Shown here piece after piece: positions 5,463 through 23,040 of a stretch of DNA of 42,701 bases. The stretch spans positions 1 to 42,701 of the forward strand of contig CAYGGT010000005.1 of NCBI GenBank assembly GCA_964349475.1, in the 5' to 3' direction. The stretch comes from an uncultured Rhodospirillaceae bacterium (GTDB taxonomy: Bacteria > Pseudomonadota > Alphaproteobacteria > Micavibrionales > UBA2020). Each line of letters begins with the position of its first letter. Position 1 is the first letter of the stretch. The position numbers were made by a program, and so were the translations under genes. The notes beneath the pieces were generated by a model. It ran no database searches. It was given only the letters and a program-made list of their open reading frames with translations, and was not told the origin of the DNA.

Positions 5463-5463
5463 T

Positions 5464-6480: not shown

Positions 6481-6493
6481 GTAGCATGCGAGC

Positions 6494-6528
6494 AAAAAAG
6501 AAAGCCCGGGATTTGGTCCCGGGCTTTC
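6494..6528 (-). terminator. Rho-independent terminator downstream of the pilin gene
   Basis: On the minus strand the stem gaaagcccggga/tcccgggctttc has a 5-nt loop and is followed by TTTTTT. It lies 28 nt after the pilin stop. Confidence 0.7.
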
Positions 6529-6555
6529 TTTCAGATCATCAAAAAACCAGCAGCC

Positions 6556-7359
6556 TTAGCCCCCGATTTTGAAGTACTGACCGCAGTCTTTGGAGTCAGC
6601 GGCGCTGTAAGTATACGGTACCGCGGCGCCAGCATAGCAACTTGCAGCCAACCCATAAGACTGGACAAATCCGGTCGCGGGAATACCATCATCCATCTTG
6701 CGGTCCATCTGACCCGCCAGAATCGGCGTCAGCACGTTGGTACCCACAACCGCACCCAGGGGGGCAGAAGGATTCGGAACCAATGCCAGAGATGTACCAG
6801 TCAAGCTCTCAGGAACCGGGCGGCCAGGAATAACAGCTGTCGCAGTTGTGTTGGCATAGCCCACAATAAAGCCGCCGCCAACCCGTGCCGCCGGCAAAGA
6901 GCCTCCAAAAGATGGAGCGATACTAGTGATACCATCATCCGTCACGCCGGAAACCAGGTTGGCGTGGGCCAGGTGCACCCAGAACAACAAAGTTTCATTG
7001 TTGACGTTACCGGCAGTAGGGCCCCCGGCAAACGAGGCCGACTGAAGCGCACTCATGTCCCAGGTATCGAGTCCCACAATGCCGTCACCCGCCGTCACCG
7101 CAACGGCGAGGCCGCAGTTTCCGCAGTTCGGGACGCGTGTGGGCGCTGTCACCAGATCACCCGGAATGCCGCTGTAAGTATCCTGGAAGGTCGTTACAGC
7201 CGCTTCAATTGCTTTCACCTGCGCCATCGTTGCCGAGACGCGGGCGTTTTCCATCAGCTGCTGGCCCTTCAGAATGCCGCCGATCAGAAGTCCGATAATG
7301 GTCAGCACGATCGCCAACTCGACGAGCGTGAAGCCTTTTTGTTGGTGCATTTTTGTCAT
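6556..7359 (-). CDS. Type IV (a-type) pilin, unusually long at 267 aa
   Basis: It has a short leader and a class III signal (MTKMHQQKG|FTLVELAIVLTIIGLLIGGIL). A C-terminal Cys pair (SCYAG...SKDC) fits a D-region disulfide. The Shine-Dalgarno AAGGGGA is present. Confidence 0.9.
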   Translation of the reverse strand: MTKMHQQKGFTLVELAIVLTIIGLLIGGILKGQQLMENARVSATMAQVKAIEAAVTTFQDTYSGIPGDLVTAPTRVPNCGNCGLAVAVTAGDGIVGLDTWDMSALQSASFAGGPTAGNVNNETLLFWVHLAHANLVSGVTDDGITSIAPSFGGSLPAARVGGGFIVGYANTTATAVIPGRPVPESLTGTSLALVPNPSAPLGAVVGTNVLTPILAGQMDRKMDDGIPATGFVQSYGLAASCYAGAAVPYTYSAADSKDCGQYFKIGG

Positions 7360-7555
7360 GTTTCAGATTCCCCTTTGGATGTTGAAGTTTACGTTTAGTG
7401 AATGAGCAACGCTCATGAGTTTGGTGGACATACACCCATTATTCAACCAAAAAGTTGAAGAATTTATTAAAAAACGCAAGACGGCTGCTCAAAGTGACAA
7501 AATGATCAGTATTTATTTCGATATGCAAAAAGTCTCTCCGTTGCACCGGCCGTTC

Positions 7556-8611
7556 TCACGGTTTTTCGCTTGGGCGGGGATCGCTGTCCTGACGGTACTG
7601 CGTCGGTGTTACCCCGGTTATTTCCCTGAATACGCGGTTAAAAGAGGCCAAAGAGTTAAAGCCCACTTCCGAAGCCACCACCTGAACGGGGATATTCTTG
7701 TCGAGGAGCATTCTTTTGGCGTCCTCCACCCTGAATTCGCTCAGATACCGCGGAAAGCTTTTGCCGAAAGAGACGTTAATCACGCGGGAGACGATGCTTT
7801 CGGAGGTGGGAATCTCACGGGCGAGGTCGGCGCGGCTAAAACTTGGCTCCTGATAAAGCTTGTCGAGCTCCATCAGTTTCTTCACTTTCTCGGCGATTCG
7901 GTTTTCTTCCGCGGTCAGAGCGCCCCGCGGCGCGGCCTGCAACTGCACAGGGGCCGGGTAAACCCGAAACATCACGGAACTCGCCAGGTAAACGAAGGCC
8001 AGGCCCAGCACGATCAGCAAAGCATCCGCATCCGCCCCCGGCAACCCCCCGACCGAGCGAAAAGAGTTAATGCCGACGACGCCGACATTGGCCATGACCA
8101 AAGTCATCACCAGCCAGTATCTTTCCCGCCCGGCGCCTTTAAACTTCCAAAGGTCCAGAAACAGGCCCCTGTGGCCCCAGAGCGCCAGCAGCACAACGCC
8201 GCCAGAAATGGAGCCGAGCAGGTAAAGCCACTGAAAAAAATCCGCGATCTGGGCAACAGTCACCGCCGCCCAGGACAGCGGCGTCAGCGCCAGAACGGAA
8301 AACTGCCGCCAGTCCGGCGGCGCGCCCTTCGCAACCTGGAGCACCAGCAGGTAGCAAAGCGGCGGACTTAAGGACCAGACAAGCCATTGCGCCAGCCGGA
8401 TGACATGCTCGTATTCGTCCAGCCGCAGCGCAACTTGCAGGCCAAAAGCGGCGGACAGCGCCAGAAAGTAGCCGATGGCCAGTGACGCTTCCCGCCAGCT
8501 GCGCACCCGGAAAAAAATATAGACCAGAATAAGGACGCCCTGCGCCAGCCCGGTCACGGACAGCCATTCAATCAGGTCGAAGGTGGGCGTCGCGTGGATG
8601 AAGGACATCAT
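7556..8611 (-). CDS. Polytopic membrane protein with a C-terminal AraC-type HTH domain
   Basis: The first 220 aa or so form about seven hydrophobic segments. The C-terminus reads SRADLAREIPTSESIVSRVINVSFGKSFPRYLSEFRVEDAKRML...VASEVGFNSLASFNRVFREITGVTPTQYR, an AraC/XylS double HTH. Confidence 0.85.
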   Translation of the reverse strand: MMSFIHATPTFDLIEWLSVTGLAQGVLILVYIFFRVRSWREASLAIGYFLALSAAFGLQVALRLDEYEHVIRLAQWLVWSLSPPLCYLLVLQVAKGAPPDWRQFSVLALTPLSWAAVTVAQIADFFQWLYLLGSISGGVVLLALWGHRGLFLDLWKFKGAGRERYWLVMTLVMANVGVVGINSFRSVGGLPGADADALLIVLGLAFVYLASSVMFRVYPAPVQLQAAPRGALTAEENRIAEKVKKLMELDKLYQEPSFSRADLAREIPTSESIVSRVINVSFGKSFPRYLSEFRVEDAKRMLLDKNIPVQVVASEVGFNSLASFNRVFREITGVTPTQYRQDSDPRPSEKP

Positions 8612-9345
8612 TTTTTCGCCGGCGTTTCCCGCATCCGCATCAGCAGCTCAACCTCATGGGGATCGACGCCGAGTTGTTCGATCAGGTAGCTCTTCATGAA
8701 TTCCACTTCTTGCGGATGGACGGTTTTTTCCGTCACCAGCATATTCTTCATCATCTGCCTGGATGCTTCCGTGTCGCCTTTTTTATTCAGGATAAAGGCC
8801 GGCATCTGCCGCGCCCACTGGGGCATGCTGCTGCTGTTCGGCAGTTTGGCGAGTTTATAGGCAATGTCCAGCGCGAGGTTCAGGTCATTCATCCGGTGCT
8901 GCGCCAGAAAAGCCGCCTGCGCCAGCCAGCGCCATTTTTCGCCAAAGGGAATTTGACCCGCCACCGTCAGGTATGCAACCACGGGCGCAATGTCCTTGGG
9001 CACGCGCGTGCCGCCGAAATAATAAGCCGCGATCATCGGCACGTGGTCGGACAGCGGGTCAAGCGCGTGCAGCAAAAAAAACCACTGCCCCAGCCGCGTG
9101 TAGTTGTAATCTTTCAGCGGCGTCACATCCCGCCCGGTATCGCCCAGATTTTGCAAGGCCAGCGCCAGAAAACGATAGGCAAGCTCCGGATCCCCCAGCG
9201 TCATCATCGTCGCCTTGCGCGCGGTCGGCACGGGGGGCACGCCTTCCCATCTCGAATAAATCTCCCGGCTGGCGCCCCACAAAGAGAGGTTCAGCGCGAG
9301 GATCATAAAAAGCGCCGCCTTGACCCTGACCCGCTGCTGCTGCAT
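8608..9345 (-). CDS. Hypothetical 245-aa protein with an N-terminal anchor or signal, then an all-helical (TPR-like?) region
   Basis: I use the ATG at 9345 (MQQQRVRVKAALFMILALNLSLWG), which shares 1 nt with the stop of the upstream permease (TAATG). The 9525 start in the ORF track would overlap that gene. Its stop overlaps the AraC start (ATGA). Confidence 0.6.
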   Translation of the reverse strand: MQQQRVRVKAALFMILALNLSLWGASREIYSRWEGVPPVPTARKATMMTLGDPELAYRFLALALQNLGDTGRDVTPLKDYNYTRLGQWFFLLHALDPLSDHVPMIAAYYFGGTRVPKDIAPVVAYLTVAGQIPFGEKWRWLAQAAFLAQHRMNDLNLALDIAYKLAKLPNSSSMPQWARQMPAFILNKKGDTEASRQMMKNMLVTEKTVHPQEVEFMKSYLIEQLGVDPHEVELLMRMRETPAKK

Positions 9346-10166
9346 TAAAACTGCCGCCGCAGGAAATCGTAAGAGGACGCCGCCAGCAGCAGCGCAATAA
9401 ACACAAGCCCCTGCAAGCCGATGAACCCGGCCAGGCCGATATTTTCCATGACGATATGCGCGTAAGACCCCGCATCGGGCAAAAACTTGACGCCGCCGGA
9501 ACCTGCCGTCCCGTATACCAGCCACGTGGTTTGTCCCATCATGTCCAGGCGCGGGACGATGATCGAGATCAATTTCATCAGGCTGCCGATCACGGCGAAG
9601 AACCAGTTGACCGGCGCCACGTCCATGATCCCCAGCAATGTCCCGATCATGCGCGCCAGCGCGTAAAAGCCGAGCGTGGCAAGCGCGGAGCCGGCGGCGC
9701 TCGACAGAACCATCGAGAAAAACAGCGCCGCCACCGACATCATGGCGAATTCAACGGCAAGGCTGGCGCCCCAGACGGCAAGCCCGCCCATGTCGGGCCG
9801 CCCCACAACCGACACCACCAGCACGATCGCCAGCGCGATGAAGAAAGACAGAATGGAAAAAGCCGCCGCATGGCTGAACAAAAAACACGGCCGGGAGATC
9901 GGCCGGGACAGCAGGAACTCCACTTCCTTGTTTTCAAAAGAACGGCGGACGTAAAAACAGCAAAAGAGGATCACCCCGGTCACGCCCAGAAACCGCAACC
10001 CCCCGGAACCGAAAACCAGCGCGAAGCTGTCGCCTTCGGTCACGCTGGCCGAGCCCGTGAAAACCGCCACCACCCCCCCCATCGCGATCATCAGCGCCAG
10101 CGTCATCATCAGCTTGTCGCGCAAGGCGGCCGTCAGAATGTATTTGATGAGTGTTTTTGAGATCAT
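9345..10166 (-). CDS. Polytopic membrane protein, ABC-2-type permease-like
   Basis: A 273-aa protein with about six hydrophobic segments and a layout like ABC-2/NosY/PilI-type permeases. The assignment rests on architecture only. Confidence 0.55.
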   Translation of the reverse strand: MISKTLIKYILTAALRDKLMMTLALMIAMGGVVAVFTGSASVTEGDSFALVFGSGGLRFLGVTGVILFCCFYVRRSFENKEVEFLLSRPISRPCFLFSHAAAFSILSFFIALAIVLVVSVVGRPDMGGLAVWGASLAVEFAMMSVAALFFSMVLSSAAGSALATLGFYALARMIGTLLGIMDVAPVNWFFAVIGSLMKLISIIVPRLDMMGQTTWLVYGTAGSGGVKFLPDAGSYAHIVMENIGLAGFIGLQGLVFIALLLAASSYDFLRRQF

Positions 10167-10247
10167 AAAAGCACTTTCACTTAAGGGTCCGCCGCCCGCC
10201 GCGAAGACGGGGGCTTATTCTCGCCGGCGCGGGAACGACAAAAAAGC

Positions 10248-12020
10248 CTACAGCCGCACCGGCCGCCGGTCATGGCCGAAGTCCTGGTAAATCTTGCGGT
10301 CCATGTCGTCGGCGTTGGAGCCGCCAGGAACAATCGTCGCGCGCATCAAAATCACCAGCTCGCTCTTGCGGATGTTGTCGCCGTGATTGCGGAACAGCGC
10401 GCCGACCATCGGGATATCTCCCAGCACCGGAATGCCGGTTTCGGATACCGTATTGTCTTCGCGCATCAGCCCGCCCATCACCATCGTCTGGCCGGAGTGC
10501 AACTTGACGATGGAGTCAATCTCCTGCACCGATAATTCGGGGATCAGGTTGCCATCGTTCAGGGGGTCGTCAATCTGCGCGGTAATTTTAGAAACGGTCG
10601 GCCGCACCGCAAGAATAATTTCACCCGTATCCAAATTGGCCGTCGGCAGGACGTTCATCAGAACGCCTTCGGGGGTCGATTTGACCGTGCCCGTCCGGGT
10701 GACCGTGGGCTCGCCGCCGACAATCGCGGACGCCGTCTGCGTCGTCTGGATGTCGAAATAAATCCGGTTGTTCGACACGTTGACGACCGCCGGCTGATTG
10801 TTGAGGACCATGACGCGCGGGCTGGAAAGGGCGCGCACCGAGCCAAAACGGCTGAGCGCGCTCAGCACCGGGCGCAGCCCATCGTTCAGGTCGATATTGG
10901 CCGTGAAAACATTGGTTGTCGGTGTAGAAAAAGTCGGCGCCGTCAGGGTTCCCGTGGCCGTCACCAGCCCCGTCAGGCTGACCTGGCCCCAGTCGATGCC
11001 GGCGGCAAATTCGTCCGACAGGGACACTTCCAGCACGCGGGCTTCGATCAGCACCTGCGTCATCGTCATTTTTTCGAAATCGTTCATGAATTTTTTCACC
11101 ATCTTGTGCTGGCGCTCGCTCGCAAAGACGCTGACGATGCCGGTTTGCTTGCTGATGGAATAGCTCGATGGCGGATTGGGAATGAGCGGCTCCGAGGTCG
11201 AAGACACATTGAGCGTCGGCGGCTCGATCGGCGGCAGTGGCGGCGGCACGGCCGCCGGATTGTTCGGATCGACAGGCAATGGCGGCGGCACATAGGCCGG
11301 CACCGGCGTCGCCACCGGATCCGCCAAAGTCGCCAGGGAGAGGTAGGTATCCGACGCGGTCAGAATCTGCTTCAGGCCATCGTTAATTTCCTTCCAGAAA
11401 TCCGGCTCGTATTTGTTTTCAATGTCGGCGTCCGAGCCGGAAGAGCTTTCTCCGGAATCGGAATCACTGGCGACGGAAATGCTGCTCTTGATGTTCGTCG
11501 TGCTTTTACGCGCGATGTTCATGTAATCGACACGGTAGTTTTTGATGTAAGGGCGGTCAAGCTCGACACGCAGGACGTTCTGCTCGAACGTATAGCGCAG
11601 GCCCGCCATCTCGGTTATCCGCTCGATGACTTCGCGGAAGGGGCGGTCTTTGGCGGTGAAAATGATCGAGCCGCGAATCTGCGGATCCATCTCCAGATCA
11701 ATCCCGGCCTGCTCGCCCAGTTCAAACATCAGGTCGCGCAGGGAGACGGTCTGGTTGACGGATACCGTCACCAGCGGCGAGGGCAGTTTCAAATCTTCCG
11801 GCATGGCGATCACGGATTGAAAATCGGGCGGCGAAGACACTTCTTCGGGCGGCAGCGGCTGCGGCGCCAAGGCGTCGCGATAGCCCTGCCGGTCTTTTTC
11901 CGCGCTGCGATCGTAAGTCACCTGGTTTTTTGCCAGCTGGCAACTACCGAGCGAGAGGGTGACAAGAGTGAGTGCAACGACGATGCAGCCGCCCCGAAAA
12001 AGATGACGCAATCCAGTCAT
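10248..12020 (-). CDS. pilQ: Secretin (PilQ/MshL family) with a lipoprotein signal
   Basis: Lipobox LSLGSC is present. An N0-like domain reads VSLRDLMFELGEQAGIDLEMD...FTAKDRPFREVIERI. The MshL-like core reads FWKEI...QVLIEARVLEVSLSDEFAAGIDW. The C-terminal secretin motif is GQTMVMGGLMRED...GIPVLGDIPMVGALF. Confidence 0.9.
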   Translation of the reverse strand: MTGLRHLFRGGCIVVALTLVTLSLGSCQLAKNQVTYDRSAEKDRQGYRDALAPQPLPPEEVSSPPDFQSVIAMPEDLKLPSPLVTVSVNQTVSLRDLMFELGEQAGIDLEMDPQIRGSIIFTAKDRPFREVIERITEMAGLRYTFEQNVLRVELDRPYIKNYRVDYMNIARKSTTNIKSSISVASDSDSGESSSGSDADIENKYEPDFWKEINDGLKQILTASDTYLSLATLADPVATPVPAYVPPPLPVDPNNPAAVPPPLPPIEPPTLNVSSTSEPLIPNPPSSYSISKQTGIVSVFASERQHKMVKKFMNDFEKMTMTQVLIEARVLEVSLSDEFAAGIDWGQVSLTGLVTATGTLTAPTFSTPTTNVFTANIDLNDGLRPVLSALSRFGSVRALSSPRVMVLNNQPAVVNVSNNRIYFDIQTTQTASAIVGGEPTVTRTGTVKSTPEGVLMNVLPTANLDTGEIILAVRPTVSKITAQIDDPLNDGNLIPELSVQEIDSIVKLHSGQTMVMGGLMREDNTVSETGIPVLGDIPMVGALFRNHGDNIRKSELVILMRATIVPGGSNADDMDRKIYQDFGHDRRPVRL

Positions 12021-12074
12021 GAAAAAGATCCATCCCCTTAAAAAACCCGCAACAAAATTGTTCCGCAGTAATTG

Positions 12075-13196
12075 TTACAGAGACAGTCCGGAGTTGTCAA
12101 TCTCTCCGCTTCTTTGTCCTTTGCCGGCGAGGTTGATCTGCCAGATTTTCATTTTCATATCTGTCGGGAAATCGGCCTCCGCGATCGCGGTCTGTTCGCT
12201 AATGATGCCGGCACGGTAAAGATTGATCAGCGACTGATCGAAAACAATCATGCCGGTGGAGTTGTTAAGGGTCATTACCTCGCGGATTTTAATGGTCTCC
12301 CCTTTCAGAATATGCTCCTTGATCAGACCTTCGTTGAGCAGGATTTCCAGCGCCACCACCAGCTGCCCCCGGATGGAAGACACCAGGCGCTGCGAGATCA
12401 CCGCGCGCAAATTCATCGACAGCGCGATTCGCACTTGCTGATGCCGGTCCTCCGGGAAAAAATTGATAATTCTTTCCACCGCTTGCGACGCGTTGTTGGC
12501 GTGGACGGTGGAAAGACAGAGATGCCCCGTCTCGGCGGCGATGAGCGCCTGCTCCATGACTTCCCGGTCGCGGATCTCCCCCACCAGGATAACATCCGGC
12601 TTCTGGCGCAGGGCGTTTTTAAGCGCGATGTGATAGGATTCGGTGTCGATGCCGACTTCCCGCTGCGTCACGATGCCTCTTTTGTGCTCGTAAAAAAATT
12701 CAATCGGATCTTCGATGGTGATGATGTGCCCGCCGGTCGTCTTGTTGCGAAAATCCGCCATCGCCGCCAGCGATGTCGATTTGCCCGAAGCGGTCACGCC
12801 GCAGACGAGAATCAACCCCCGCCTTTCAAGCGCCAGGTTCTCCATCATCTTTGGCAGGTGCAGATCTTCGAAACTGGGGATTTTGCCGGTGATGCGCCGG
12901 ACCACCAGCGCCGGATATTGCCGCTGGCGCAGGACGCTGATGCGAAAGCGGCCGTCTTTGCCCATGTCAATCGCCAGGTTCAGCTCCATGCGGGATTCAA
13001 ACTCGCGGCGCTGCCGGCTGGTCAGGATATCCCCCAGCATGTCCTGTATATCCGCTTCTTCCAGCGCTTTTTCCGACAGCGCATGCAGCCGGTCGTTCAC
13101 GCGGAGCATCGGCGGCACGCCGACCGTCAGGTAAAGGTCGCTTGCCTCTTCCGTGACCATCTTGTTGAGATAAGGATAAATCGCAACATCGGTCAA
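12075..13196 (-). CDS. pilU: PilU-like type IV pilus retraction ATPase paralog
   Basis: The N-terminus SDLYLTVGVPPMLRVN, Walker A GVTASGKST, and the Asp and His boxes are present. It lacks the AIRNLIRE motif. The TTG start overlaps the pilT stop (TTGA). Confidence 0.85.
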   Translation of the reverse strand: MTDVAIYPYLNKMVTEEASDLYLTVGVPPMLRVNDRLHALSEKALEEADIQDMLGDILTSRQRREFESRMELNLAIDMGKDGRFRISVLRQRQYPALVVRRITGKIPSFEDLHLPKMMENLALERRGLILVCGVTASGKSTSLAAMADFRNKTTGGHIITIEDPIEFFYEHKRGIVTQREVGIDTESYHIALKNALRQKPDVILVGEIRDREVMEQALIAAETGHLCLSTVHANNASQAVERIINFFPEDRHQQVRIALSMNLRAVISQRLVSSIRGQLVVALEILLNEGLIKEHILKGETIKIREVMTLNNSTGMIVFDQSLINLYRAGIISEQTAIAEADFPTDMKMKIWQINLAGKGQRSGEIDNSGLSL

Positions 13197-14398
13197 AACG
13201 AATATCCTTCTTTTGGATCGTCCTTGACAGGGGAGGACGCCGACGGTTTGGCCGCCGTCACGGGCGGCTGCGCTTTACTGGCGGCCAGCGGCGGCGAATT
13301 TTTCTTTGCCGTCACCGGCGTCACAGGCGGCGCAGATGGGGCGTGCGCGCTTGCTGCAATGTCATCCGTGTCGTCGGAAGTGTCTTTCTTCATCGCATCA
13401 ACCGCCGATTGTTCGCTCACCAGCCCTGCCGCCAGCAAGTCGTTCACGGAATCGGCCATGGTCTGCATGCCGTAGCGCGCGCCGGTCTGGATCATCGAGT
13501 AAATCTGCGGCAACTGGTTTTCGCGGATCAGGTTGCGGACCGCGTTCGTGCCGACCATGATCTCGTGCGCGGCGACGCGCCCGCCGCCGACCTTTTTCAG
13601 CAGCTGCTGGGAGATGACGCCCTGGATCGCCCCGGCCAGCATCGTCCGCGCCATTTCTTTTTCAGCCGCCGGAAAAACGTCGATCAGCCGCGAGGCGGTC
13701 TTGGCGGCATCGCTGGAGTGCAGCGTCCCGAACACCAGGTGGCCGGTTTCCGCCGCGGTCAGGGCGAGAGAAATCGTTTCGTAGTCGCGCATCTCCCCCA
13801 CCAGGATCACGTCGGGGTCTTCCCGCAAAGCGCTGCGCAGCGCGGCGGCGAATGATTTCGTGTCGGTGCCGACTTCGCGGTGGTTGATCAGACTCTTTTT
13901 CGACGTGTGAAAAAATTCCACCGGATCTTCGATGGTCAGGATATGGCCGGCCATCGTTTCATTAATGTGGTTGACCATCGCCGCCAGCAGCGTCGATTTA
14001 CCGCTGCCGGTCGGCCCGGTCACCAGGATCAGGCCTTTTTCAAAAGACGTCAGGCGGGTGATAATCGGCGGCAAGTTCATGTTTTCGATGCGCGGGATGA
14101 CGGACGGGATCACCCGGAGCACGGCGGCGGAGCCGATACGGTTGGTGAAGGCGTTGATACGAAACCGCGCGGTTTCCCCGAAAGAAATAGCGAAATCGAT
14201 CTCATAGTCGCGCTCGTACACGCTGCGCTGTTCTTCGGCCATGACGGAAAAAAGCATGGCGCGGATTTCGTCCGCGGTCAGGGGGTTGGTCTTGATCGAC
14301 GCCAGCTCTCCGTCGATGCGCACCATGGGCGGGTTCTTGCCGCTCAGATGCAAATCCGAGGCTTTGTTATCAAGCGTAAACTTGAGCAATTCTGTCAT
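13193..14398 (-). CDS. pilT: PilT twitching-motility ATPase with a Pro/Ala-rich C-terminal extension
   Basis: SDLHLSGKNPPMVRIDGEL, Walker A GPTGSGKST and the PilT signature AVRNLIRE are present. I prefer the ATG at 14398 (MTELLKF), which has GGGGAGGG upstream. The longest ORF start is 14428. Confidence 0.9.
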   Translation of the reverse strand: MTELLKFTLDNKASDLHLSGKNPPMVRIDGELASIKTNPLTADEIRAMLFSVMAEEQRSVYERDYEIDFAISFGETARFRINAFTNRIGSAAVLRVIPSVIPRIENMNLPPIITRLTSFEKGLILVTGPTGSGKSTLLAAMVNHINETMAGHILTIEDPVEFFHTSKKSLINHREVGTDTKSFAAALRSALREDPDVILVGEMRDYETISLALTAAETGHLVFGTLHSSDAAKTASRLIDVFPAAEKEMARTMLAGAIQGVISQQLLKKVGGGRVAAHEIMVGTNAVRNLIRENQLPQIYSMIQTGARYGMQTMADSVNDLLAAGLVSEQSAVDAMKKDTSDDTDDIAASAHAPSAPPVTPVTAKKNSPPLAASKAQPPVTAAKPSASSPVKDDPKEGYSF

Positions 14399-14471
14399 GT
14401 CCACGGAAAACCCTCCCCTGATAATCAACCCTTTCCAAGACTACGCCATAGGCATGAAAAAAGTGTAAATA

Positions 14472-15257
14472 TCAGATATTTATAAAAACAGGAATATGAA
14501 GACATAATACGGTGAAAAAGGCGATCATCAAAGCAGGGCCGAAAGGAACTTCCGGGTCTTTAAACATTTTTTTCCAGATCAGGGAAAGCCCCACGCCGCA
14601 CAGGCCGGCGATTGTCATGAACAACGCCGCCGCGTCAAGATCGGCTCCCAGCCAAAATCCCGCGGCGGCGAAAAATTTAACGTCCCCCAGCCCCATCGAT
14701 TCACGCTTGACCGCCAGCATGACCGCCTGACGCAGCGCCAGCGCCGCCACGCCGTAAAGCACGGCCCCGCCCAGGGCAATGCCGCCCTTGGCGAGGATAA
14801 ATTCCAGCGGGGTCCCGTCGGTGAAAGCGTTCACCACCAGCAGCGCCGCCCCAAGCAGTAAAACGGAAAGATTGAGACTGTCGGGAATAATTTTGTGGTG
14901 CAAGTCGATGTCGATGATGCTGACAATGATCGGCGCCAGCGCAAAAACCAGCACTGTTTCAGGCGCCAGCCCGTAAACGGCGTAAAGAATGAGACAGAGG
15001 GCAAGCGTCGCCAGTTCGATCAGCGGATACCGCCAGCCGATCGGCGCGCGGCAATGCCGGCATTTCCCCCGCAAGAAAACCCAGGAAAAAACCGGCACCA
15101 GGTCCGCCATGCCAAGGGTATGCTGACAAACCGGGCATAAGGAGCGTTTTACCGTCAAAATCGAAATGTCGCGCGGCATGCGGTAAGAAAGCGCCGTCGC
15201 AAAACTGCCCAGCACCAGCCCCAGAAAAGTGACGATCATGATATTGAAGGCGTTCAT
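14472..15257 (-). CDS. pilD: Prepilin peptidase / N-methyltransferase (A24 family)
   Basis: The Zn-finger-like CPVCQH...CRHC and the catalytic Asp motifs (IDLHHKIIPD and GLGDVKFF) are present. I prefer the ATG at 15257 over the TTG at 15287. Confidence 0.9.
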   Translation of the reverse strand: MNAFNIMIVTFLGLVLGSFATALSYRMPRDISILTVKRSLCPVCQHTLGMADLVPVFSWVFLRGKCRHCRAPIGWRYPLIELATLALCLILYAVYGLAPETVLVFALAPIIVSIIDIDLHHKIIPDSLNLSVLLLGAALLVVNAFTDGTPLEFILAKGGIALGGAVLYGVAALALRQAVMLAVKRESMGLGDVKFFAAAGFWLGADLDAAALFMTIAGLCGVGLSLIWKKMFKDPEVPFGPALMIAFFTVLCLHIPVFINI

Positions 15258-15305
15258 TGAGAAGGCGCTCCGCCGGAATGACAACAAGAACTTTTAGAAA
15301 TGCCT

Positions 15306-16256
15306 TTATCGAATAATCGACAGGCGTTTTTTCACCGTTTCGAGCGGAAAACCGTGGTCGAGAGAGCCGTCTTCCCCCAGAAGAACGATTTGGCGATAGA
15401 GATCGGCGGCGCGGTTTTTTTTCCCCATCCGGTCGTAAACAATGGCCCTGTTGTAGAGGATGTTGGCGTTCCCCGGTTCCAGGGCATGGGCCATCTCCAG
15501 GTATTTCAGCGCCTTTTCGTAGTCGCCGGCCATGCCGTAAGCCAGGCCAAGCTGCGCCGTAATATCCGCGTTGGAGGGGTAAATATCGCGCAACTGGTGA
15601 AGTTTTTCAATCGTCAGCGCCTGATCTGCCTTATCAAGCAGGCCCAGCATGTTTGTCAGGGCTTCCAGGTTTTTGGGGTCGTTGCGGAGAGCCAGCTCGT
15701 AAGCGGCCAGCGCTTCTTCTCTCTGCCCCAGTTTCTGAAAGGTGATCGCCCGGCCCATCAGCACGCGCTTGTTGTGCGGAAATTCCACATAAAGGTCGCT
15801 GAAAATTTGCAGCGCCGCCTGATAACTGCCCTGCGCCAGCGCCGTGCGCGCCGCCGCCAGACGCGCATCCATGCCGTCGGCGCCCTGGGTTTTTTTGACC
15901 ACCAGATATTTCTCCGGCAGATCCCGTATCTCCGCCGGCTGCGCCAGAATATCCGTCACCTTCGGTCCGGCCCCGGCGTTTTTCGGATTGGGAGACGCGG
16001 GCGCAACGATATTCGCGGGCGGCGCTGCGACCTGCGCCGGAGGCGTTGTTGGTTGCGCCGGAGGCGCTCCTGGCTGCGCCAGAGGCGTTACCGGTTGCGC
16101 CAGAGGCGTTGTTGGTTGCGCCAGAGGCGCTGTGATATTCAGCGGCGCCGCAACCGGTGCGGCTGGTGTTTGTGCCAGAGCGGCTGAAACAATGCCGACA
16201 GACACAATCAGGCTTGCCGTCGCCAGAAGGGCATTTTTCTTGCTAAACGATTTCAT
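15306..16256 (-). CDS. Secreted TPR-repeat protein (MshN/PilF-like position)
   Basis: A signal peptide is followed by a Pro-rich tandem region (PLAQPTTPLAQPVTPLAQPGAPPAQP). TPR-like repeats follow (YQAALQIFSDLY, EEALAAYELALRNDPKN, YEKALKYLEMAHALEPGN). Confidence 0.8.
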   Translation of the reverse strand: MKSFSKKNALLATASLIVSVGIVSAALAQTPAAPVAAPLNITAPLAQPTTPLAQPVTPLAQPGAPPAQPTTPPAQVAAPPANIVAPASPNPKNAGAGPKVTDILAQPAEIRDLPEKYLVVKKTQGADGMDARLAAARTALAQGSYQAALQIFSDLYVEFPHNKRVLMGRAITFQKLGQREEALAAYELALRNDPKNLEALTNMLGLLDKADQALTIEKLHQLRDIYPSNADITAQLGLAYGMAGDYEKALKYLEMAHALEPGNANILYNRAIVYDRMGKKNRAADLYRQIVLLGEDGSLDHGFPLETVKKRLSIIR

Positions 16257-17035
16257 GATTCATAAACCCTTGTTGATCCTTCGATAATTTTCAGGAAAGC
16301 CCGCTCCAGATTATCTTTCTGGGTCTTTTCTTTTAGATCGGCGGGGGTGCCTAAAAACTTTAGCGCACCGTCATGAATAACGCCCACCCGACCGCAAATT
16401 TCATCCATATCCGCCAGAATATGCGAGCTTAAGAATACCGTGATCCCCCGCTTGCGGCAAGCGACAATCTCGTCCTTCACAAGCACACGCGCGCGCGGGT
16501 CGAGGCCGCTCATCGGCTCGTCAAGAATCAGCAAGGGGCATTCCGTCAGCCAGGTGCCCATCAGCCCGGTTTTCTGGCGCATGCCTTTGGAATAGGTATT
16601 GACGCGGCGGCGCAGGGCCGCGCGGGAAAGGGCAATGCGGTCCGCCGCCGCCAGCACGGCATTTTCGTCAAACGGCCGCTGGTACAGTTCCAGCGAAAAG
16701 CGAATGAACTCAAGCCCGCTCAGGAAAAACGGCGGCTCGAATTTTTCCGGCAGGTAGGCGATCTTGGCCTTGCTCGCCGGCGCCGGCGTTTCCTGGCCGA
16801 ACAGGCTGATCTTCCCCTTTGACGCTTCCATCAAGCCCAGAATAATTTTAATCAGCGTCGTCTTGCCAACGCCATTCAACCCGATCAGCCCGAAGGTTTC
16901 CCCGGTTTCGACATCGAAAGTGATGTCTTCAATAACATTGCCGAACCCATAGTTGGCGGTGACGCCGTCGATCCTGATGGCGCTGGGGGCGGGCTGGGTT
17001 ATTTTCGCGGCGGCTGAAACCATCATATCCCTCAC
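16253..17035 (-). CDS. ABC transporter ATP-binding protein embedded in the pilus operon
   Basis: Walker A GLNGVGKTT, signature YSKGMRQK and Walker B LLILDEPMSGLD are present. It has 4-nt overlaps with both neighbours. Confidence 0.9.
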   Translation of the reverse strand: MRDMMVSAAAKITQPAPSAIRIDGVTANYGFGNVIEDITFDVETGETFGLIGLNGVGKTTLIKIILGLMEASKGKISLFGQETPAPASKAKIAYLPEKFEPPFFLSGLEFIRFSLELYQRPFDENAVLAAADRIALSRAALRRRVNTYSKGMRQKTGLMGTWLTECPLLILDEPMSGLDPRARVLVKDEIVACRKRGITVFLSSHILADMDEICGRVGVIHDGALKFLGTPADLKEKTQKDNLERAFLKIIEGSTRVYES

Positions 17036-18293: not shown

Positions 18294-19921
18294 AGAGGTG
18301 CACCCTCCATTTCAAATTCTGCGAAATCAGTGTCTTTTTGCCCGGCGGCAAGCTCGGCGCCGCCGGCCACGCCGGCGAATTTTCCGTCGGCCGAAGAAAT
18401 GCCGCCGAACTGGGTTTTAATTCTAACAAGATATCCGGGGAAAGCTTTTCTTAAGTCCTCCACCAGAAGAGCGGAACGCTGCACTTTTTTCTCCAGGGTC
18501 AGCCGCTCGATGAACTTAAACTGGAAAGTGATGCGCACGGAACCGCGATCATTTTCTTTTGCCTTGCCGGCAGAGGCGCTGTTTCCGGGCGCCGCGTTCC
18601 CGGCCGACTCAAGCTTGAGCGCGACCGCCGGCCGGTGCTCGAAAGAAAAAGATTCAAGGCCGACGGCGCCGGCGAAAACCTTGTGCAGGGCTTCAAGCGT
18701 CAGCGCAATGTCGATGGTGTTGTTTTCAAGCAGTTTTTTCGTCGTCATAATGGCCCGGATCACCGCCGGTTTAGCTGGCAGCGCATCAATATCTTTGACG
18801 CGCTGCTGCAGGTCCGCCTCCAGCCCTGATTTTTGAAGGCGCGCGATCTCAGCGTCTTTTTTGACGGTGTCGTAAACCTGATAGCCGGTTAAAGTGAAAT
18901 AGCCGAGCACCAGAAAAGCCAGCGCCAGCGCAATCGTGGCAAGGCGCACGACCAATCTTGGTTTTATAATGCGCTCGACGCTCGGCACCTTGACCGGAAC
19001 CGCCAGGGATTTTTTCTTGCTGGCCCAGGCGGCATGCAGGGCATCGGCGTAGTTCACCTCTTCGAACGTTTCGCCTTTGCCCATGCCGATGGCCGTCAGC
19101 GCTTCCAGCGGGGTGATGCATTGAAAATTGGTCACCGGCAAGTGCTTGTTCTCGAAGTATTGTTTTTCGGCGTCGCCGCAGACCATGACGATATCAATGC
19201 CGTCTTCCGGCTTGTAACCGAAACGGGCGATGTAGGTCAGCGTCGCCTTGAATTCCCGCAGCACTTCTTCCGCCCATTCCGGTCCGCGGATACCGGCTTC
19301 GGACGCGGGCGTCATCCGGGTCAGGGCCAGGTTGCCGTCTTTGACGACGACCTGGCGCAACCCGCCCGTCTCGTGCTGACCGATCAGGACCGCCCAGCGG
19401 GACATATCGCCTTTTTTGCCGAACAAGTTCCCGGCAACGGCGGTGACCAGCCCCTGCGATTCGGCGGGCAACAGGCCAAAGCCGGCCAGCGGAACGGCTG
19501 CCTCCAGAACATTTTCCACAACCCGGTCGGAGCGTTCAATCTCCGGTATCGCCGCGAAAAGATAAGACGGCATCCCTTTCGGTCCCCGCACCCGCGGCGG
19601 CGGAATTTCGATGGACGTGCGAATGGGGTAGCTTGGAAACGCCTGTTCCAGCTTGCGCTCGATAAACCGCTTGCGGTCGAAAATACTCAGCTTTGGAACA
19701 TTCTCTTCCTTGCGATAGGTCTGGTCGGCGCCATCAAACAGCAGCAGCATCGGGCTTTGCTGATGCTGCTTGCCCAGCACGTCCGTCAGATGCTCGTCAA
19801 AGTCGGGGCTGTCCCAGGAAAGGGCGATTTCACGCTCGATGCCGCCGGCAACAGGTCCGAAAAGCACGACGCCGTCGCCGCCGATCAGCAAGATGCGTTT
19901 CCTGGGGCTGAGTAAAGACAC
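18290..19921 (-). CDS. Bitopic 543-aa protein, PilM-PilN fusion / MshI / GspL-like architecture (hypothetical)
   Basis: A cytoplasmic region of about 320 aa precedes a single TM helix (VVRLATIALALAFLVLGYFTL). A coiled-coil and periplasmic domain of about 200 aa follows. The GTG start lies 3 nt after the pilC stop. Confidence 0.55.
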   Translation of the reverse strand: MSLLSPRKRILLIGGDGVVLFGPVAGGIEREIALSWDSPDFDEHLTDVLGKQHQQSPMLLLFDGADQTYRKEENVPKLSIFDRKRFIERKLEQAFPSYPIRTSIEIPPPRVRGPKGMPSYLFAAIPEIERSDRVVENVLEAAVPLAGFGLLPAESQGLVTAVAGNLFGKKGDMSRWAVLIGQHETGGLRQVVVKDGNLALTRMTPASEAGIRGPEWAEEVLREFKATLTYIARFGYKPEDGIDIVMVCGDAEKQYFENKHLPVTNFQCITPLEALTAIGMGKGETFEEVNYADALHAAWASKKKSLAVPVKVPSVERIIKPRLVVRLATIALALAFLVLGYFTLTGYQVYDTVKKDAEIARLQKSGLEADLQQRVKDIDALPAKPAVIRAIMTTKKLLENNTIDIALTLEALHKVFAGAVGLESFSFEHRPAVALKLESAGNAAPGNSASAGKAKENDRGSVRITFQFKFIERLTLEKKVQRSALLVEDLRKAFPGYLVRIKTQFGGISSADGKFAGVAGGAELAAGQKDTDFAEFEMEGAPL

Positions 19922-19924
19922 TGA

Positions 19925-21139
19925 CTATCCCCCCATCTTGCCGAAGCTGTCGTAGATCGGGCCGAAAACGGCGGCCGCGATCCATAGAACCGTGATGCCA
20001 AGCACGGCTGTCAGGATAGGCTCGATCAGGAGGATCATCGCATCCACCGACTCATCCACATCCTTGTCGTAAAATTCGGACACCTGTTGCAAAACGGTTG
20101 TCAAATTGCCTGATTCTTCTCCGATCTTGACCATGCGCATGACGAGCGGCGGAAACTCGCCCGACCCTTTCAGCGCCACCGACAGGGGCACGCCTTCCTG
20201 CACGCTCTGGCGCACGCGCCCGAGCGACTCAATCAGCACCAGATTGCCCGTCGTATTCTTGGCGGCGTCCAGGCATTTCAGGATATCAAGCCCGCTGGTG
20301 AACAAAATCCCGAAAGTCTGACAGAACTGCGACAGGGCGATCTTGCGGATCACCTGGCCGATCAAAGGCATATTCAAAAGAATGTAGTGAACCCGGTATC
20401 TGAATTCCTGCGACACGGCACAGCCGATTTTGACAAAAATAACGACAGCAATGACTCCGAGGATCACGTAGAGAAAATAATTGATCACAAATTCCGAAGT
20501 CGCGATCAACGCCAGCGTGATGAAAGGCAGTTCCTGGCCGATGTCTTTCAGAAATCCCGTCACCTGCGGCACCACATAACCCATCATCACCCAGATCACG
20601 ATCACCACAACCACGCAAAGGATCATCGGGTAACGCCGCGCTTTTCTGATTTTACTCTGTATCGCATCCGTCCATTTGAGATGCCGGATGACCTGCGCGA
20701 AAGACGTATGCAGGTTGCCGGTTTCTTCGCCGCCGGCGATGAGGGACACGAAAATATTCTTGAAGGTTCCCGGATGCTTGGCAAGCGCCGCGGAGAACGA
20801 GTTGCCTTCCACCACGTCGCGATGCACGTCCGCCATAATGTCGCGCAGCTTCGGCGATTCGGCGCTGTCCCGCACGTCGGCGAGCGCATCCAGCAGCGGA
20901 ACGCCCGCTTTCTGAAGTTGTTCCAGGTGAATGAACATCTGTATCAGGTCGCGAACTTTTATTTTTTTGCCCGCGAACCCTGCCACCGCGCCGGCATTTT
21001 CGGAGATCTCCTTGCAGTCGATCAACGTCATCCCGCCTTCTTCCAGGCGTGAGAAAAGATCGGACTCATTGGCCGCTTCCACGATGCCACGTGCCGGACG
21101 GCCTTGCGTATTCAGCGCTCTGTACTTAAATTTCGGCAA
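19925..21139 (-). CDS. pilC: Type IV pilus platform protein PilC/GspF family
   Basis: A 404-aa protein with the duplicated GspF domain (KVRDLIQMFIHLEQLQKAGVPLLDAL and QFCQTFGILFTSGLDILKCLD) and three TM regions. Confidence 0.9.
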   Translation of the reverse strand: MPKFKYRALNTQGRPARGIVEAANESDLFSRLEEGGMTLIDCKEISENAGAVAGFAGKKIKVRDLIQMFIHLEQLQKAGVPLLDALADVRDSAESPKLRDIMADVHRDVVEGNSFSAALAKHPGTFKNIFVSLIAGGEETGNLHTSFAQVIRHLKWTDAIQSKIRKARRYPMILCVVVVIVIWVMMGYVVPQVTGFLKDIGQELPFITLALIATSEFVINYFLYVILGVIAVVIFVKIGCAVSQEFRYRVHYILLNMPLIGQVIRKIALSQFCQTFGILFTSGLDILKCLDAAKNTTGNLVLIESLGRVRQSVQEGVPLSVALKGSGEFPPLVMRMVKIGEESGNLTTVLQQVSEFYDKDVDESVDAMILLIEPILTAVLGITVLWIAAAVFGPIYDSFGKMGG

Positions 21140-21234
21140 CTTGAAAGGCCCCTTCCCCGGGTAAAAAGCTCTCCCCGAGCTCTCTATATAGAGCTATTAT
21201 AAAGAGAAACCAAGTCCAGAACAATGGGGAGCCG

Positions 21235-23040
21235 CTACATCCTGTCGGCGAAGCTGACGGTCTTCATCAGCGCGTCAAGCGTGGTCAGTCCTTCAAAGAC
21301 CTTTAAAGTCCCGTCATCGCGCATGCTTTTAAAACCGTTCTTGCGGGCAACGGCTTTCAGCTCGGACTTATGTCCATTTGCGGCGATGACCGCTTCGATG
21401 TCTTCGTCCATGAATAATATTTCGTGAATGCCCATGCGGCCTTTGTATCCGCTATTTTTGCACTCCGCGCATCCGACCGGACGGTACAGTGTCGGCGGCT
21501 GCGCCGGATCAACCGCCAGCAGCTTGCACTCTTCAGGAGAAGCGTCATAAGGCTTTTTGCAATTTTGACAAAGTTTTCTGACAAGTCGCTGGGCGAAACA
21601 AGCGATGATGGCGCCCGCCATCATCCCCGGCTGCAAGCCCAGATCCACCAGCCGCGGAATGGCGCCAAAACTGTCGTTGGTGTGGAGCGAGGTAAACACC
21701 TGGTGACCGGTCATGGCGGCTTTCAGCGCCTGCTCCGCCGTCACCTCATCCCGGACCTCGCCGACGAAAATGATGTCGGGATCCTGACGCAGCAGCGCCT
21801 TGATGCCCTCCCCAAACGTAAAGCCGGCGCCGTCGCGCACGCTCGACTGGCGGATCAGGCCCAGCGAATATTCCACCGGGTCTTCCAGCGTCTGGATATT
21901 CACATCCAGCGTGTTGATGGCGTTCAGCATCGAGTAAAGCGTCGTCGTCTTGCCGCTGCCGGTCGGCCCGGTGACGATGATGATGCCTTCCGGCCGGGCG
22001 AGGGCCTTTTGGATCAGGCGCATGTTATGTTCGCTGAAGTTGAGCTTTTCCAGCGGCACGATGCTGGCGTTTTTATCCAGCACCCGCAGCACGATATTTT
22101 CGCCGTGCACCGTCGGCAGGGCGGAAACACGGAAGTCGGCGTCCCGGCCGCCCATGTTGAGGCCGAACCGGCCGTCCTGCGGGGTCAGCTTGTCGGCGAT
22201 GTTCATCTCCGACATGATTTTCAGACGCTGCGATATCCCGTTCCAATAATCGCGGTGCAGCGTATGCGCCACCAGCAGGTCGCCGTCCAGGCGATAGCGG
22301 ATGCGCACGAAACTGGCCTCCGGCTCGAAGTGCAAATCCGACGCGCCCATCTTTACCGCCTCAAACACCATGGCGTTGACGAGGCGCACGATCGGATGGC
22401 TATAGGCGTCTTCTTCGGACAGGCTGTCCAGATTTTTCTTCGCGGCGCTTTTGTCGCCGGCAAGCTCCGCCAGGATCGCCTTGATCGAGGTCGATACGCC
22501 GTAAGCCTTGTGAATCGTATCCGCGATGATGGAAGGAGAACAAATCAGCGGCACCATCGTCAGCCCGCGCGGCAAGATCTGCTTAAGACGGTCGAAGACC
22601 ACGACATCATAAGGGTCCGCCATGGCGATGCTGATCTCATTTTTGGCGGGGATGACGGAAACCGGCAGAATCTGGTACTTGAGCGCGTCTTTTTTCGCGA
22701 TCATGGCGAGCGCTTCGGGATCGAGCATGGTTTTTTTCGGGTCGAACTGCTGAAACCCGGTGGTTTCCGCCAGAAAATTGGTTAAAACCTCCGCGCTGAT
22801 GAAACCCAGCTCGACCAGCGTTTCGCCGATCATTTTTCCCGATTTTTGCTTGTCATGCAAAGCGACGTTGAGCTGATCTTCGCTGATCAGCCCCTTGTCC
22901 ACCAGGTGGTCGCCGATGCGTTTGGATTTTTTATCATCCGTCAGCGTCGCATCCCGCATCACCGGCAGCGACGACTCGTGCACGGGATCAGGTGTCTGAA
23001 CAATCAGGTTTTTTTGGGTGACATCATCCGTTTTCATCAC
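21235..23040 (-). CDS. pilB: Type IV pilus assembly ATPase, GspE/PilB family with an MshE-like N-domain
   Basis: Walker A GPTGSGKTT and a tetracysteine motif (CQNCKK...CAECKNSGYKGR) are present. The N-terminus reads RIGDHLVDKGLISEDQLNVAL...MIGETLVELGFIS. Confidence 0.9.
   Translation of the reverse strand: MMKTDDVTQKNLIVQTPDPVHESSLPVMRDATLTDDKKSKRIGDHLVDKGLISEDQLNVALHDKQKSGKMIGETLVELGFISAEVLTNFLAETTGFQQFDPKKTMLDPEALAMIAKKDALKYQILPVSVIPAKNEISIAMADPYDVVVFDRLKQILPRGLTMVPLICSPSIIADTIHKAYGVSTSIKAILAELAGDKSAAKKNLDSLSEEDAYSHPIVRLVNAMVFEAVKMGASDLHFEPEASFVRIRYRLDGDLLVAHTLHRDYWNGISQRLKIMSEMNIADKLTPQDGRFGLNMGGRDADFRVSALPTVHGENIVLRVLDKNASIVPLEKLNFSEHNMRLIQKALARPEGIIIVTGPTGSGKTTTLYSMLNAINTLDVNIQTLEDPVEYSLGLIRQSSVRDGAGFTFGEGIKALLRQDPDIIFVGEVRDEVTAEQALKAAMTGHQVFTSLHTNDSFGAIPRLVDLGLQPGMMAGAIIACFAQRLVRKLCQNCKKPYDASPEECKLLAVDPAQPPTLYRPVGCAECKNSGYKGRMGIHEILFMDEDIEAVIAANGHKSELKAVARKNGFKSMRDDGTLKVFEGLTTLDALMKTVSFADRM

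Follow-up and report, generated by a model that had tools for sequence, protein, structure and literature searches.

Conserved linkage of candidate ABC module genes to a type IV pilus gene cluster in Micavibrio-like and other Alphaproteobacteria

A 42,701-nucleotide stretch of DNA from an uncultured Rhodospirillaceae bacterium (contig CAYGGT010000005.1; here called the window) carries a type IV pilus gene cluster in which genes for an ATP-binding cassette (ABC) ATPase, a permease, and a 245-residue protein (p245) are interspersed among the pilus genes. We propose that this cluster encodes a complete, retractable type IV pilus machine together with a dedicated three-part ABC module, that the two have been inherited together, and that the module is probably required for pilus assembly. 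We put the probability of this reading at roughly 60%.

Linkage of the ABC genes to the pilus genes

The ABC genes are conserved and co-inherited with the pilus genes. The 120 clusters closest to the window ABC ATPase are 71-100% identical to it, and those that carry a name are labeled Micavibrio sp., Alphaproteobacteria, Proteobacteria, and, in one case, Patescibacteria. A scan of GTDB species genomes yielded ten related loci from 10 species, the titles of which read Micavibrio sp. or refer to metagenome-assembled genomes (MAGs) of Rhodospirillaceae, Rhodospirillales, Alphaproteobacteria, or Pseudomonadota. The gene order common to close relatives is pilB-pilC-543-218-202-ABC-TPR-pilD-pilT-pilU-secretin-permease-245-AraC, where the numbers give product lengths in residues and TPR denotes a tetratricopeptide repeat protein. 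Across the 10 species, no protein of the cluster is better conserved than the ABC ATPase, which shows 72-81% identity, compared with 69-75% for PilB and 31-41% for the 218-residue protein. Since the clusters in L004, L007, and L008 end after pilD, with the permease half not in the sequence retrieved, the locus can be regarded as two separable modules.

We collected 27 further loci from the contexts of distant relatives of the 543-residue protein, a predicted fusion of PilM and PilN (PilM-N; see below), and from a metagenome scan with a 10-sequence alignment. The related loci span 35-66% GC, and PilM-N identity falls to 25-29%. Even so, the order is fully retained in L020 (GC content, 40%; 29% identity in the 543-residue protein), with the permease, p245, and AraC genes in place. 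In a high-GC sister clade (GC, 0.56 to 0.66), the order is pilD-secretin-permease-p245-pilin-MshE-pilC-543-218-202-ABC, and there is also a convergent pilU-pilT-(SLT+TPR)-pilin unit. In 30 of the 31 loci with enough sequence, the ABC ATPase gene comes directly after the gene for the PilP-like 202-residue protein, no more than 3 kb downstream of the PilM-N gene, L045 being the sole exception, while the permease gene is followed by that for p245 in all 22 loci (22/22) and stands directly after the secretin gene in 18 of these 22. In BLAST comparisons with the window ABC ATPase, the sister-clade ATPases score 206-257 bits and unrelated ABC ATPases 41-71 bits. The pairwise distance matrices for PilC and PilM-N are mirrored by those for the ATPase, permease, and p245 (correlation, r=0.86-0.97), and the ABC ATPase diverges as fast as PilC (mean distance, 0.44 each). 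These sequence distances fit co-inheritance of the ABC and pilus genes since their common ancestor.

Two side observations concern individual loci. In L039, L041, L042, and L044, pilD is followed directly by the permease and p245 genes with no secretin gene between (e.g., L044:3804-5876), and no 218-like or 202-like genes are detectable between the PilM-N and ABC ATPase genes. Furthermore, NCBI taxonomy lists Micavibrio under Bdellovibrionota; the genome paper and the MAG titles describe it as alphaproteobacterial. The label "Bdellovibrionales bacterium" on one permease homologue is accounted for by this placement.

In the window, the list of open reading frames (ORFs) bears out the 15 co-directional minus-strand genes, running from 23040 down to 6556, that a preliminary description of this DNA had read there, each at its coordinates (Table 1). 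The same description had seen four consecutive stop-start overlaps around the ABC ATPase gene. All four 4-nt overlaps are present in the sequence (18290-93, 17637-40, 17032-35, and 16253-56), although the third may not be used: the database gene call for the ABC ATPase is 256 residues long and begins at Met5 (17023), with a GAGG motif 6 nt upstream. As judged from the sequence, this may be the true start, which would place it 8 nt past the upstream stop, leaving a gap instead of an overlap. In gene calls of relatives, an overlap of 1-4 nt between the PilP-like and ABC ATPase genes is seen. Further tight junctions join pilT and pilU (TTGA, 13193-96), permease and p245 (TAATG, 9345), and p245 and AraC (ATGA, 8608-11).

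Against this background, there is almost no probability left for the view that the ABC genes are unrelated passengers among pilus genes. Five genes do separate the ATPase from the permease, and the window permease has no Pfam match, two points that speak for this view. However, the linkage described above persists across very deep divergence, stop-start overlaps join ABC genes to pilus genes, and no relative of either the ATPase or the permease was seen in a non-pilus context above ~30% identity. The conservation data thus effectively refute passenger insertion. The preliminary description had likewise held that the ATPase is no passenger and that a split ABC exporter is wired into the operon, a claim that would fail if the homologues of ATPase and permease sat in unrelated neighborhoods or if the arrangement was not conserved. 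We looked at both points and found neither to be the case, since close and distant homologues all reside in the same kind of pilus locus. The "unusual hybrid" machine of that description turns out to be the standard architecture of a broad alphaproteobacterial clade.

Components of the ABC module and of the pilus machine

The ABC ATPase matches ABC_tran (PF00005; E=3.3e-23). Its Walker A (GLNGVGKTT), signature (YSKGMRQK), Walker B (LLILDEP), and H-loop (SSH) motifs can be read directly, and all catalytic motifs are present, including the Q-loop and the catalytic Glu of Walker B; the protein is therefore predicted to be catalytically intact. Its nearest solved relatives are TM0544 (1vpl), the second nucleotide-binding domain of ABCA4, and NosF, all of which are nucleotide-binding domains of the ABC-2 class. 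No PilH-named model is found among its top NCBIfam matches.

The permease has six hydrophobic segments. While the window protein lacks any Pfam match, its ortholog in L009 matches ABC2_membrane_2 (PF12679) with E=3e-6, at 27.1 bits against a cut-off of 27.2, and PF01061 with E=0.0026. PF12679 also appears in precomputed annotation on about one-quarter of the permease relatives among the matches listed, and the JGI label is NosY-type permease. The permease is the putative partner of the ABC ATPase.

The third protein, p245, belongs to a family of 872 homologous clusters, all unnamed. The longest reading of its ORF (8608-9525) gives 305 residues, and the conserved reading is that of 245 residues from the ATG at 9345. 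In an AlphaFold2 model (pLDDT, 90.9), p245 has one long helix at its N terminus and then a TPR-like solenoid of helices, for which Foldseek returned only generic helical-repeat matches (such as BamD, MamA, and designed TPRs; E>=0.085 throughout). Given the positively charged residues that precede the anchor helix, the solenoid should face the periplasm. Considering its coupling to the permease in every one of the loci that have it, p245 is most likely the third ABC component, a periplasmic accessory subunit, a point that the preliminary description had missed.

The remaining genes supply the parts of a type IV pilus machine. The MshE-like ATPase matches T2SSE (PF00437; E=3.5e-121) and MshEN (PF05157; E=4.8e-12) and scores above the cut-off for the MshE-related cyclic di-GMP (c-di-GMP) motif NF053729 (64.9 versus 38 bits), while it remains below the equivalog cut-offs of PilB (504.9 versus 675.65 bits) and GspE (487 versus 630.25). 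Likewise, the PilC platform protein matches T2SSF (PF00482) twice (E=2.8e-53) but reaches 333 bits against a cut-off of 424 with its best NCBIfam model, GspF, and 229-275 bits against 700 with PilC models. In contrast, both retraction ATPases exceed the cut-off of the PilT-family model TIGR01420 (319.1 bits), PilT with 463.5 and PilU with 404.1 bits. The motif AVRNLIRE is found in PilT, and a motif of the AIRNLIRE type is not found in PilU. PilT of the window ends in a low-complexity tail of ~65 residues rich in Pro, Ala, and Ser (13193-13400, minus strand); canonical PilT is ~345 residues long and has no such tail. PilT lengths of 385-411 residues in relatives suggest that the tail is conserved.

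The secretin, which carries the lipobox LSLGSC, scores best with the MshL model TIGR02519, at 227.2 bits below its cut-off of 250.2, compared with 124.9 bits for GspD (cut-off, 351.35) and 92.3 for PilQ (cut-off, 284.35). The TPR protein is a putative helper of the secretin or of assembly. The high-GC sister clade encodes the TPR protein as a fusion with an SLT lytic transglycosylase domain (L018:17553-19028; L035:15857-17080; L043:14492-15649), which suggests a peptidoglycan-remodeling role for this component.

The candidate pilin has a class III signal peptide (QKG|FTLVELAIVL), is unusually large at 267 residues, and is rich in Ser, Thr, Ala, and Gly. GspG is the top-scoring model for its N terminus. 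Pilin sequences with the same N terminus are encoded downstream of AraC in L006 and L011; in L023 and L024, this N terminus is found between p245 and MshE. A prepilin motif scan of the whole 42.7-kb window found only this one motif and no minor pilins nearby, in agreement with the single pilin and missing minor-pilin genes noted in the preliminary description. A plus-strand ORF of 368 residues (6292-7398) overlaps the whole pilin gene and is longer than it. Given the N_methyl motif of the pilin and the conservation of its N terminus in these four loci, that ORF is probably spurious. Both the Micavibrio-like clade and L020 keep the AraC regulator gene downstream of that for p245.

Between the platform and the ABC ATPase genes lie three genes for a presumptive alignment complex. 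Profile searches of the kind proposed in the preliminary description matched T2SSE, T2SSF, Secretin, ABC_tran, and TPR models in other products of the cluster but gave no Pfam or NCBIfam match for the 543-, 218-, 202-, 273-, and 245-residue products. For the families of the first three and of the permease, profile comparison with PDB sequences returned nothing meaningful, and lenient Pfam scans returned nothing except the permease ortholog of L009. An exhaustive HMMER search showed that the family of the 543-residue protein comprises 649 cluster representatives, nearly all 520-580 residues long, down to ~26% identity. None of 69 diverse members matched the PilM, PilN, or GspL Pfam models; one distant relative bears the UniRef name "GspL periplasmic domain-containing protein." The AlphaFold2 model of the window protein is confident (pLDDT, 88.1). 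In Foldseek searches, its first ~300 residues superpose on PilM (5eou, E=5.5e-9; 2ych), and the model also matches the cytoplasmic domains of GspL/EpsL (4pht and 1yf5). After the actin-like domain come a transmembrane helix, a coiled coil of ~70 residues (helix 313-380), and a small periplasmic alpha/beta domain. Based on this combination of a PilM/GspL-like fold with helix, coiled coil, and alpha/beta domain, the modeled 543-residue protein is a PilM-PilN fusion of the GspL/MshI type. It shares with PilM/GspL the actin-like cytoplasmic domain, the single transmembrane helix, and the periplasmic alpha/beta domain, but it has a much longer coiled coil and no sequence match to any Pfam, NCBIfam, or PDB entry.

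The 218-residue protein has one N-terminal transmembrane segment, and its gene always follows that of PilM-N and overlaps it. This position and topology point to a PilO/GspM-like member of the alignment complex. An hhalign comparison of its family with the periplasmic part of the 543-residue family, as a sign of PilN/PilO paralogy, was not significant (probability, 2.6%). The 202-residue protein has a signal peptide, a Pro/Ala-rich linker, and a C-terminal domain of ~80 residues, the only part conserved in the alignment; position and architecture suggest that it is PilP-like.

Table 1. Genes of the pilus cluster in the window, and ExeA/MshM-class genes in sister-clade loci
Feature	Coordinates	Strand	Basis
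MshE-like pilus assembly ATPase (PilB family), N-terminal MshEN	21235..23040	-	Pfam, NCBIfam
PilC/GspF/MshG family inner-membrane platform protein	19925..21139	-	Pfam, NCBIfam
Predicted PilM-PilN fusion (GspL/MshI-like), 543 aa	18290..19921	-	AlphaFold2 model and Foldseek
PilO/GspM/MshJ-sized bitopic protein, 218 aa	17637..18293	-	Position and topology
PilP/MshK-sized secreted protein, 202 aa	17032..17640	-	Position and architecture
ABC ATPase of ABC-2 (type V) class, minimal nucleotide-binding domain	16253..17035	-	Pfam, motifs, solved relatives
Secreted TPR protein, MshN/TadD/PilF-like	15306..16256	-	Several TPR families (Pfam), signal peptide, Pro-rich linker
Prepilin peptidase PilD (A24)	14472..15287	-	PF06750 E=1.7e-28; PF01478 E=8e-11
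PilT retraction ATPase	13193..14428	-	TIGR01420, AVRNLIRE motif
PilU-like second PilT-family ATPase	12075..13196	-	TIGR01420
MshL-like lipoprotein secretin	10248..12020	-	PF00263 E=1.1e-36, Secretin_N_2, lipobox
Putative ABC-2 family permease, 273 aa, 6 predicted transmembrane segments	9345..10166	-	Hydrophobic segments, ortholog Pfam match
p245, N-terminal membrane anchor and all-alpha helical-repeat (TPR-like) domain	8608..9345	-	AlphaFold2 model
Membrane-anchored AraC-family regulator	7556..8611	-	HTH_18 E=1.6e-19; 5 hydrophobic segments in N-terminal 215 aa
Candidate major pilin, 267 aa	6556..7359	-	N_methyl E=4.5e-08
ExeA/MshM-class AAA_22 ATPase genes	L023:1-957; L039:1946-3673; L044:2557-3804		Pfam/TIGR03015

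Several features outside the cluster deserve mention. A gene for a GGDEF diguanylate cyclase (32071-33138, minus strand) lies ~9 kb from that for the MshE-type ATPase with its c-di-GMP motif, and in L023 a PAS-GAF-GGDEF gene adjoins the cluster. A single ORF of 518 residues (29210-30766, minus strand) joins flavin adenine dinucleotide synthetase/riboflavin kinase (RibF) and signal peptidase II (LspA), which are normally encoded by separate genes. In myxobacterial pilus clusters, a riboflavin kinase gene is reported beside pilB (PMC6060248), a parallel that may be coincidence. Just past the pilin gene, a stretch of low GC content (4001-6000; 0.49 versus ~0.58) holds a gene for a HicB-like antitoxin (5049-5462, minus strand) and short ORFs and could represent a small insert, mobile or variable, at the cluster edge. 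A 638-residue ORF (2435-4351, plus strand) has no Pfam match at E<=1e-5, and three clustered Sel1-repeat proteins (239, 463, and 144 residues) are encoded near the far end of the window (36847-41053).

Class of the machine

The cluster does not fall readily into a known class. Except for the PilT family, all equivalog cut-offs of type IVa pili (T4aP) and of type II secretion systems (T2SS) were missed. Of the hallmarks of T4aP, PilT and PilU are there, but PilB, PilQ, and PilC at equivalog level and separate PilM and PilN proteins are not. With respect to T2SS, GspD, GspE, and GspF remain below their cut-offs, and neither GspC nor further prepilins are encoded in the window. The resemblance to the mannose-sensitive hemagglutinin (MSHA) pilus of Vibrio cholerae (mshHIJKLMNEGF plus pilin genes) lies in the MshEN-type ATPase, a secretin for which MshL is the best model, an MshN-like TPR protein, and the organization in a single locus; moreover, MshI of MSHA is a fused PilM-N-type protein, as we propose for the 543-residue protein. 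In contrast to MSHA, however, the present cluster includes PilD, PilT, and PilU, has one large pilin with no minor set, carries the ABC trio, has no MshM in the locus, and encodes a secretin that falls under the cut-off of the MshL model.

In the MSH model of Denise et al. 2019, mshA, mshE, mshG, mshL, as well as mshM are mandatory (PMC6668835). MSH loci hold several msh pilin genes and no prepilin peptidase, and they have been reported from Gamma- and Epsilonproteobacteria and Chrysiogenetes, not from Alphaproteobacteria (PMC6668835). Measured against this model, the window cluster has the MshEN ATPase, but it lacks MshM, includes a peptidase gene, and has a single pilin gene. The msh-like gene content seen in the preliminary description is thus borne out by the MshEN ATPase, the MshL-like lipoprotein secretin, the TPR protein, and the fused PilM-N, without making the cluster a canonical MSH locus. 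The dedicated PilT and PilU of that description are both indeed encoded in the cluster. We consider the cluster best described as a distinct alphaproteobacterial branch of MSH/T2SS-like type IV filaments.

It could be argued that the locus instead specifies a type II-like secretion system or a nonretractile pseudopilus, with an ABC module that serves secretion. The platform protein and the pilin N terminus score best with GspF and GspG, respectively, the PilM-N fusion has the architecture of GspL, and the genome paper of M. aeruginosavorus counted an incomplete T2SS without GspC, G, H, and K (PMC3189940). Yet both clades encode PilT and PilU in or beside the locus, GspC and a set of GspH-K pseudopilins are missing, the secretin is MshL-like rather than GspD-like (227 versus 125 bits), the 267-residue pilin is far larger than GspG, and every T2SS equivalog cut-off is missed. 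We therefore consider this view very improbable; the presence of PilT and PilU and the lack of GspC and GspH-K led us to reject it.

Scans of the 15 genes and of other window ORFs with Pfam detected no AAA_22/ExeA-like gene. This bears on an earlier suggestion that the ABC ATPase is a nonorthologous replacement of the ExeA-like AAA protein MshM; it would then take over the part of MshM, with the TPR protein MshN, in secretin assembly. MshM being mandatory in the published MSH model (PMC6668835), its lack among the 15 genes, together with the 4-nt overlap that joins the ABC ATPase and TPR genes in the window, might indeed hint at such an exchange. In the sister-clade loci L023, L039, and L044, however, an ExeA/MshM-class AAA_22 gene is located beside pilD, directly upstream of it, in the company of the ABC ATPase, permease, and p245 genes. 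The proteins of L044 and L039 match the related model TIGR03015 over almost the whole length of the model (E=1e-31 to 6e-37). Furthermore, the sister-clade ATPase gene does not stand beside the TPR gene, which belongs to the convergent pilU-pilT-SLT/TPR-pilin unit, and the conserved neighbor of the ATPase gene is the PilP-like gene rather than the TPR gene. A replacement of MshM thus appears highly unlikely, and we reject it on the grounds that both proteins coexist in the sister clade.

Proposed role of the ABC module

We envisage a machine in which the c-di-GMP-gated MshE-type ATPase would work with the PilC platform, which the PilM-N fusion and the PilO-like and PilP-like proteins would connect to the lipoprotein secretin. 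PilD would process the 267-residue pilin, and PilT and PilU would retract the fiber. The ABC ATPase, encoded after the PilP-like gene, the permease, encoded after the secretin gene, and p245, translationally coupled to the permease, would form one complex that is needed for pilus assembly in the way that PilGHI is in Myxococcus. Rather than pumping an unrelated solute, such a complex might convert cytoplasmic ATP hydrolysis into periplasmic work through p245, with secretin assembly, assembly of the alignment complex, or pilin handling as possible targets. That the three proteins form a complex is a deduction from gene linkage, and a need for the trio in piliation is assumed by analogy to PilGHI. 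The mechanotransducer mode is suggested, again by analogy, by class-level likeness to NosFY-type systems and by the linkages of the ATPase gene with the PilP-like gene and of the permease gene with the secretin gene.

Regarding the latter systems, NosFY (7o0y-series structures) drives a periplasmic partner and does not export a solute. The likeness to NosFY-NosD holds at class level only: the ATPase has NosF among its closest solved relatives, the permease family is annotated as PF12679/NosY-type, and a dedicated, presumably periplasmic partner is encoded beside the permease. There is, however, no copper or N2O reductase context here, and NosD is a beta-helix, unlike the alpha-helical-repeat p245.

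The closest functional precedent, by analogy, would be PilGHI of Myxococcus. There, an accessory factor, an ATPase, and a permease are encoded in the operon pilA-pilG-pilH-pilI and co-transcribed with pilA, and pilGHI deletions abolish S-motility, with the mutants being regarded as unpiliated (T4P-) (PMC3546991, PMC3724824, PMC5544727). The mechanism of PilGHI is unresolved, and the trio has also been reported in Bdellovibrio, Geobacter, and relatives (PMC3546991, PMC3724824, PMC5544727, PMC6060248). In both cases, an ATPase, a polytopic permease, and an accessory protein are encoded inside a type IV pilus cluster and expressed with the pilus genes. Whereas the pilGHI genes are contiguous and adjoin pilA in a canonical T4aP system, in which PilM, N, O, P, and Q are separate proteins, the trio of the window is split, with the ATPase five genes away from permease-p245, and it accompanies an MSH/T2SS-like machine with a fused PilM-N in an alphaproteobacterial lineage. 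Thus, the trio lies within the pilus cluster as in Myxococcus, but its three genes do not form one contiguous run co-transcribed with the pilin gene.

Several observations weigh against the proposed module and its role in assembly. The window permease misses the Pfam thresholds, and p245 has no specific structural relative, which makes its role a guess. Binding between ATPase and permease, and contact of either with the pilus machine, is deduced from gene sequence and order. Any vertically inherited gene would be expected to give a high correlation of distance matrices. Nowhere do the ATPase and permease genes adjoin each other, and in some genomes they fall into different loci: L004, L007, and L008 end after pilD, and in L018 and L022 no permease gene is found nearby. 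Four loci have permease-p245 without an adjacent secretin gene, which weakens a secretin-specific role. Finally, the most divergent relative, L045 (1797-15483), has no permease, p245, or dedicated ABC ATPase gene in the 21.5 kb retrieved, while it carries secretin, pilin, pilB, pilC, PilM-N, 218-like, and 202-like genes. Its PilP-like gene is followed by a gene run that holds the only ABC hit and that we recognized by eye as a suf (Fe-S cluster) operon, and a TPR-GT41 glycosyltransferase gene adjoins the secretin gene on its upstream side. Possibly, L045 represents an ABC-less outgroup, in which case the ABC module may be dispensable for the basic machine.

This last locus also lends some color to another explanation, namely, that the ABC module genuinely exports some cargo on which the pilus depends, such as a lipid-linked glycan for the pilin, a polysaccharide or lipid acting as trigger or lubricant, or a peptide or toxin. 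The glycosyltransferase gene adjoins the secretin gene precisely in the sole relative without ABC genes in the retrieved stretch, and the four loci in which permease-p245 has no secretin neighbor also speak for export. Glycan, lipid, and drug exporters are found in the ABC-2 class, the ATPase has DrrA, NodI, GldA, and ABCA among its best matches, and the pilin is unusually large and rich in Ser, Thr, Ala, and Gly. On the other hand, no glycosyltransferase, oligosaccharyltransferase, or polysaccharide gene is present in the ABC-containing loci examined, the permease family is annotated as PF12679/NosY-type and not as PF01061/Wzm-type, and a role in protein-protein contacts would better suit the constant coupling to a periplasmic helical-repeat protein. 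We therefore regard export as unlikely, although it is the strongest competitor of a module that works on the pilus machine itself.

A bolder version of the module hypothesis is that the ABC trio constitutes an unrecognized core subsystem that defines a new type IV filament subtype across Alphaproteobacteria, including the predatory Micavibrio. The trio would then be an extra ABC motor beside PilB, PilT, and PilU that drives secretin assembly or gating, or pilin loading, via the TPR-like adaptor, on the same principle as PilGHI, whether by descent or by independent recruitment. We offer this only tentatively and think it rather unlikely as a whole.

A literature search found no paper describing this pilus system; the Micavibrio genome paper gave no more than a passing mention to dispersed pil genes and an "incomplete T2SS" (PMC3189940). 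An ABC transporter in a pilus cluster is as such already known from PilGHI. The novelty lies in the type of machine, the lineage, the splitting of the trio, and how widely it is conserved, as well as in predicted folds for the PilM-N fusion and p245, two families that match nothing in Pfam or NCBIfam.

In conclusion, the cluster is a second case in which an ABC trio and a type IV pilus go together across deep divergence. The role of PilGHI in pilus biogenesis has been unexplained since 1998 and is usually seen as a lineage oddity; the present pairing gives comparative access to this question. The gene linkages suggest that type IV pili recurrently make use of an ABC motor as a functional add-on, and they provide concrete interaction hypotheses. 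Moreover, the cluster points to an uncharacterized pilus type in Alphaproteobacteria, a group generally credited with Tad/Flp pili, and its bearers include the epibiotic predator Micavibrio, in which pili are suspected to function in prey attachment.

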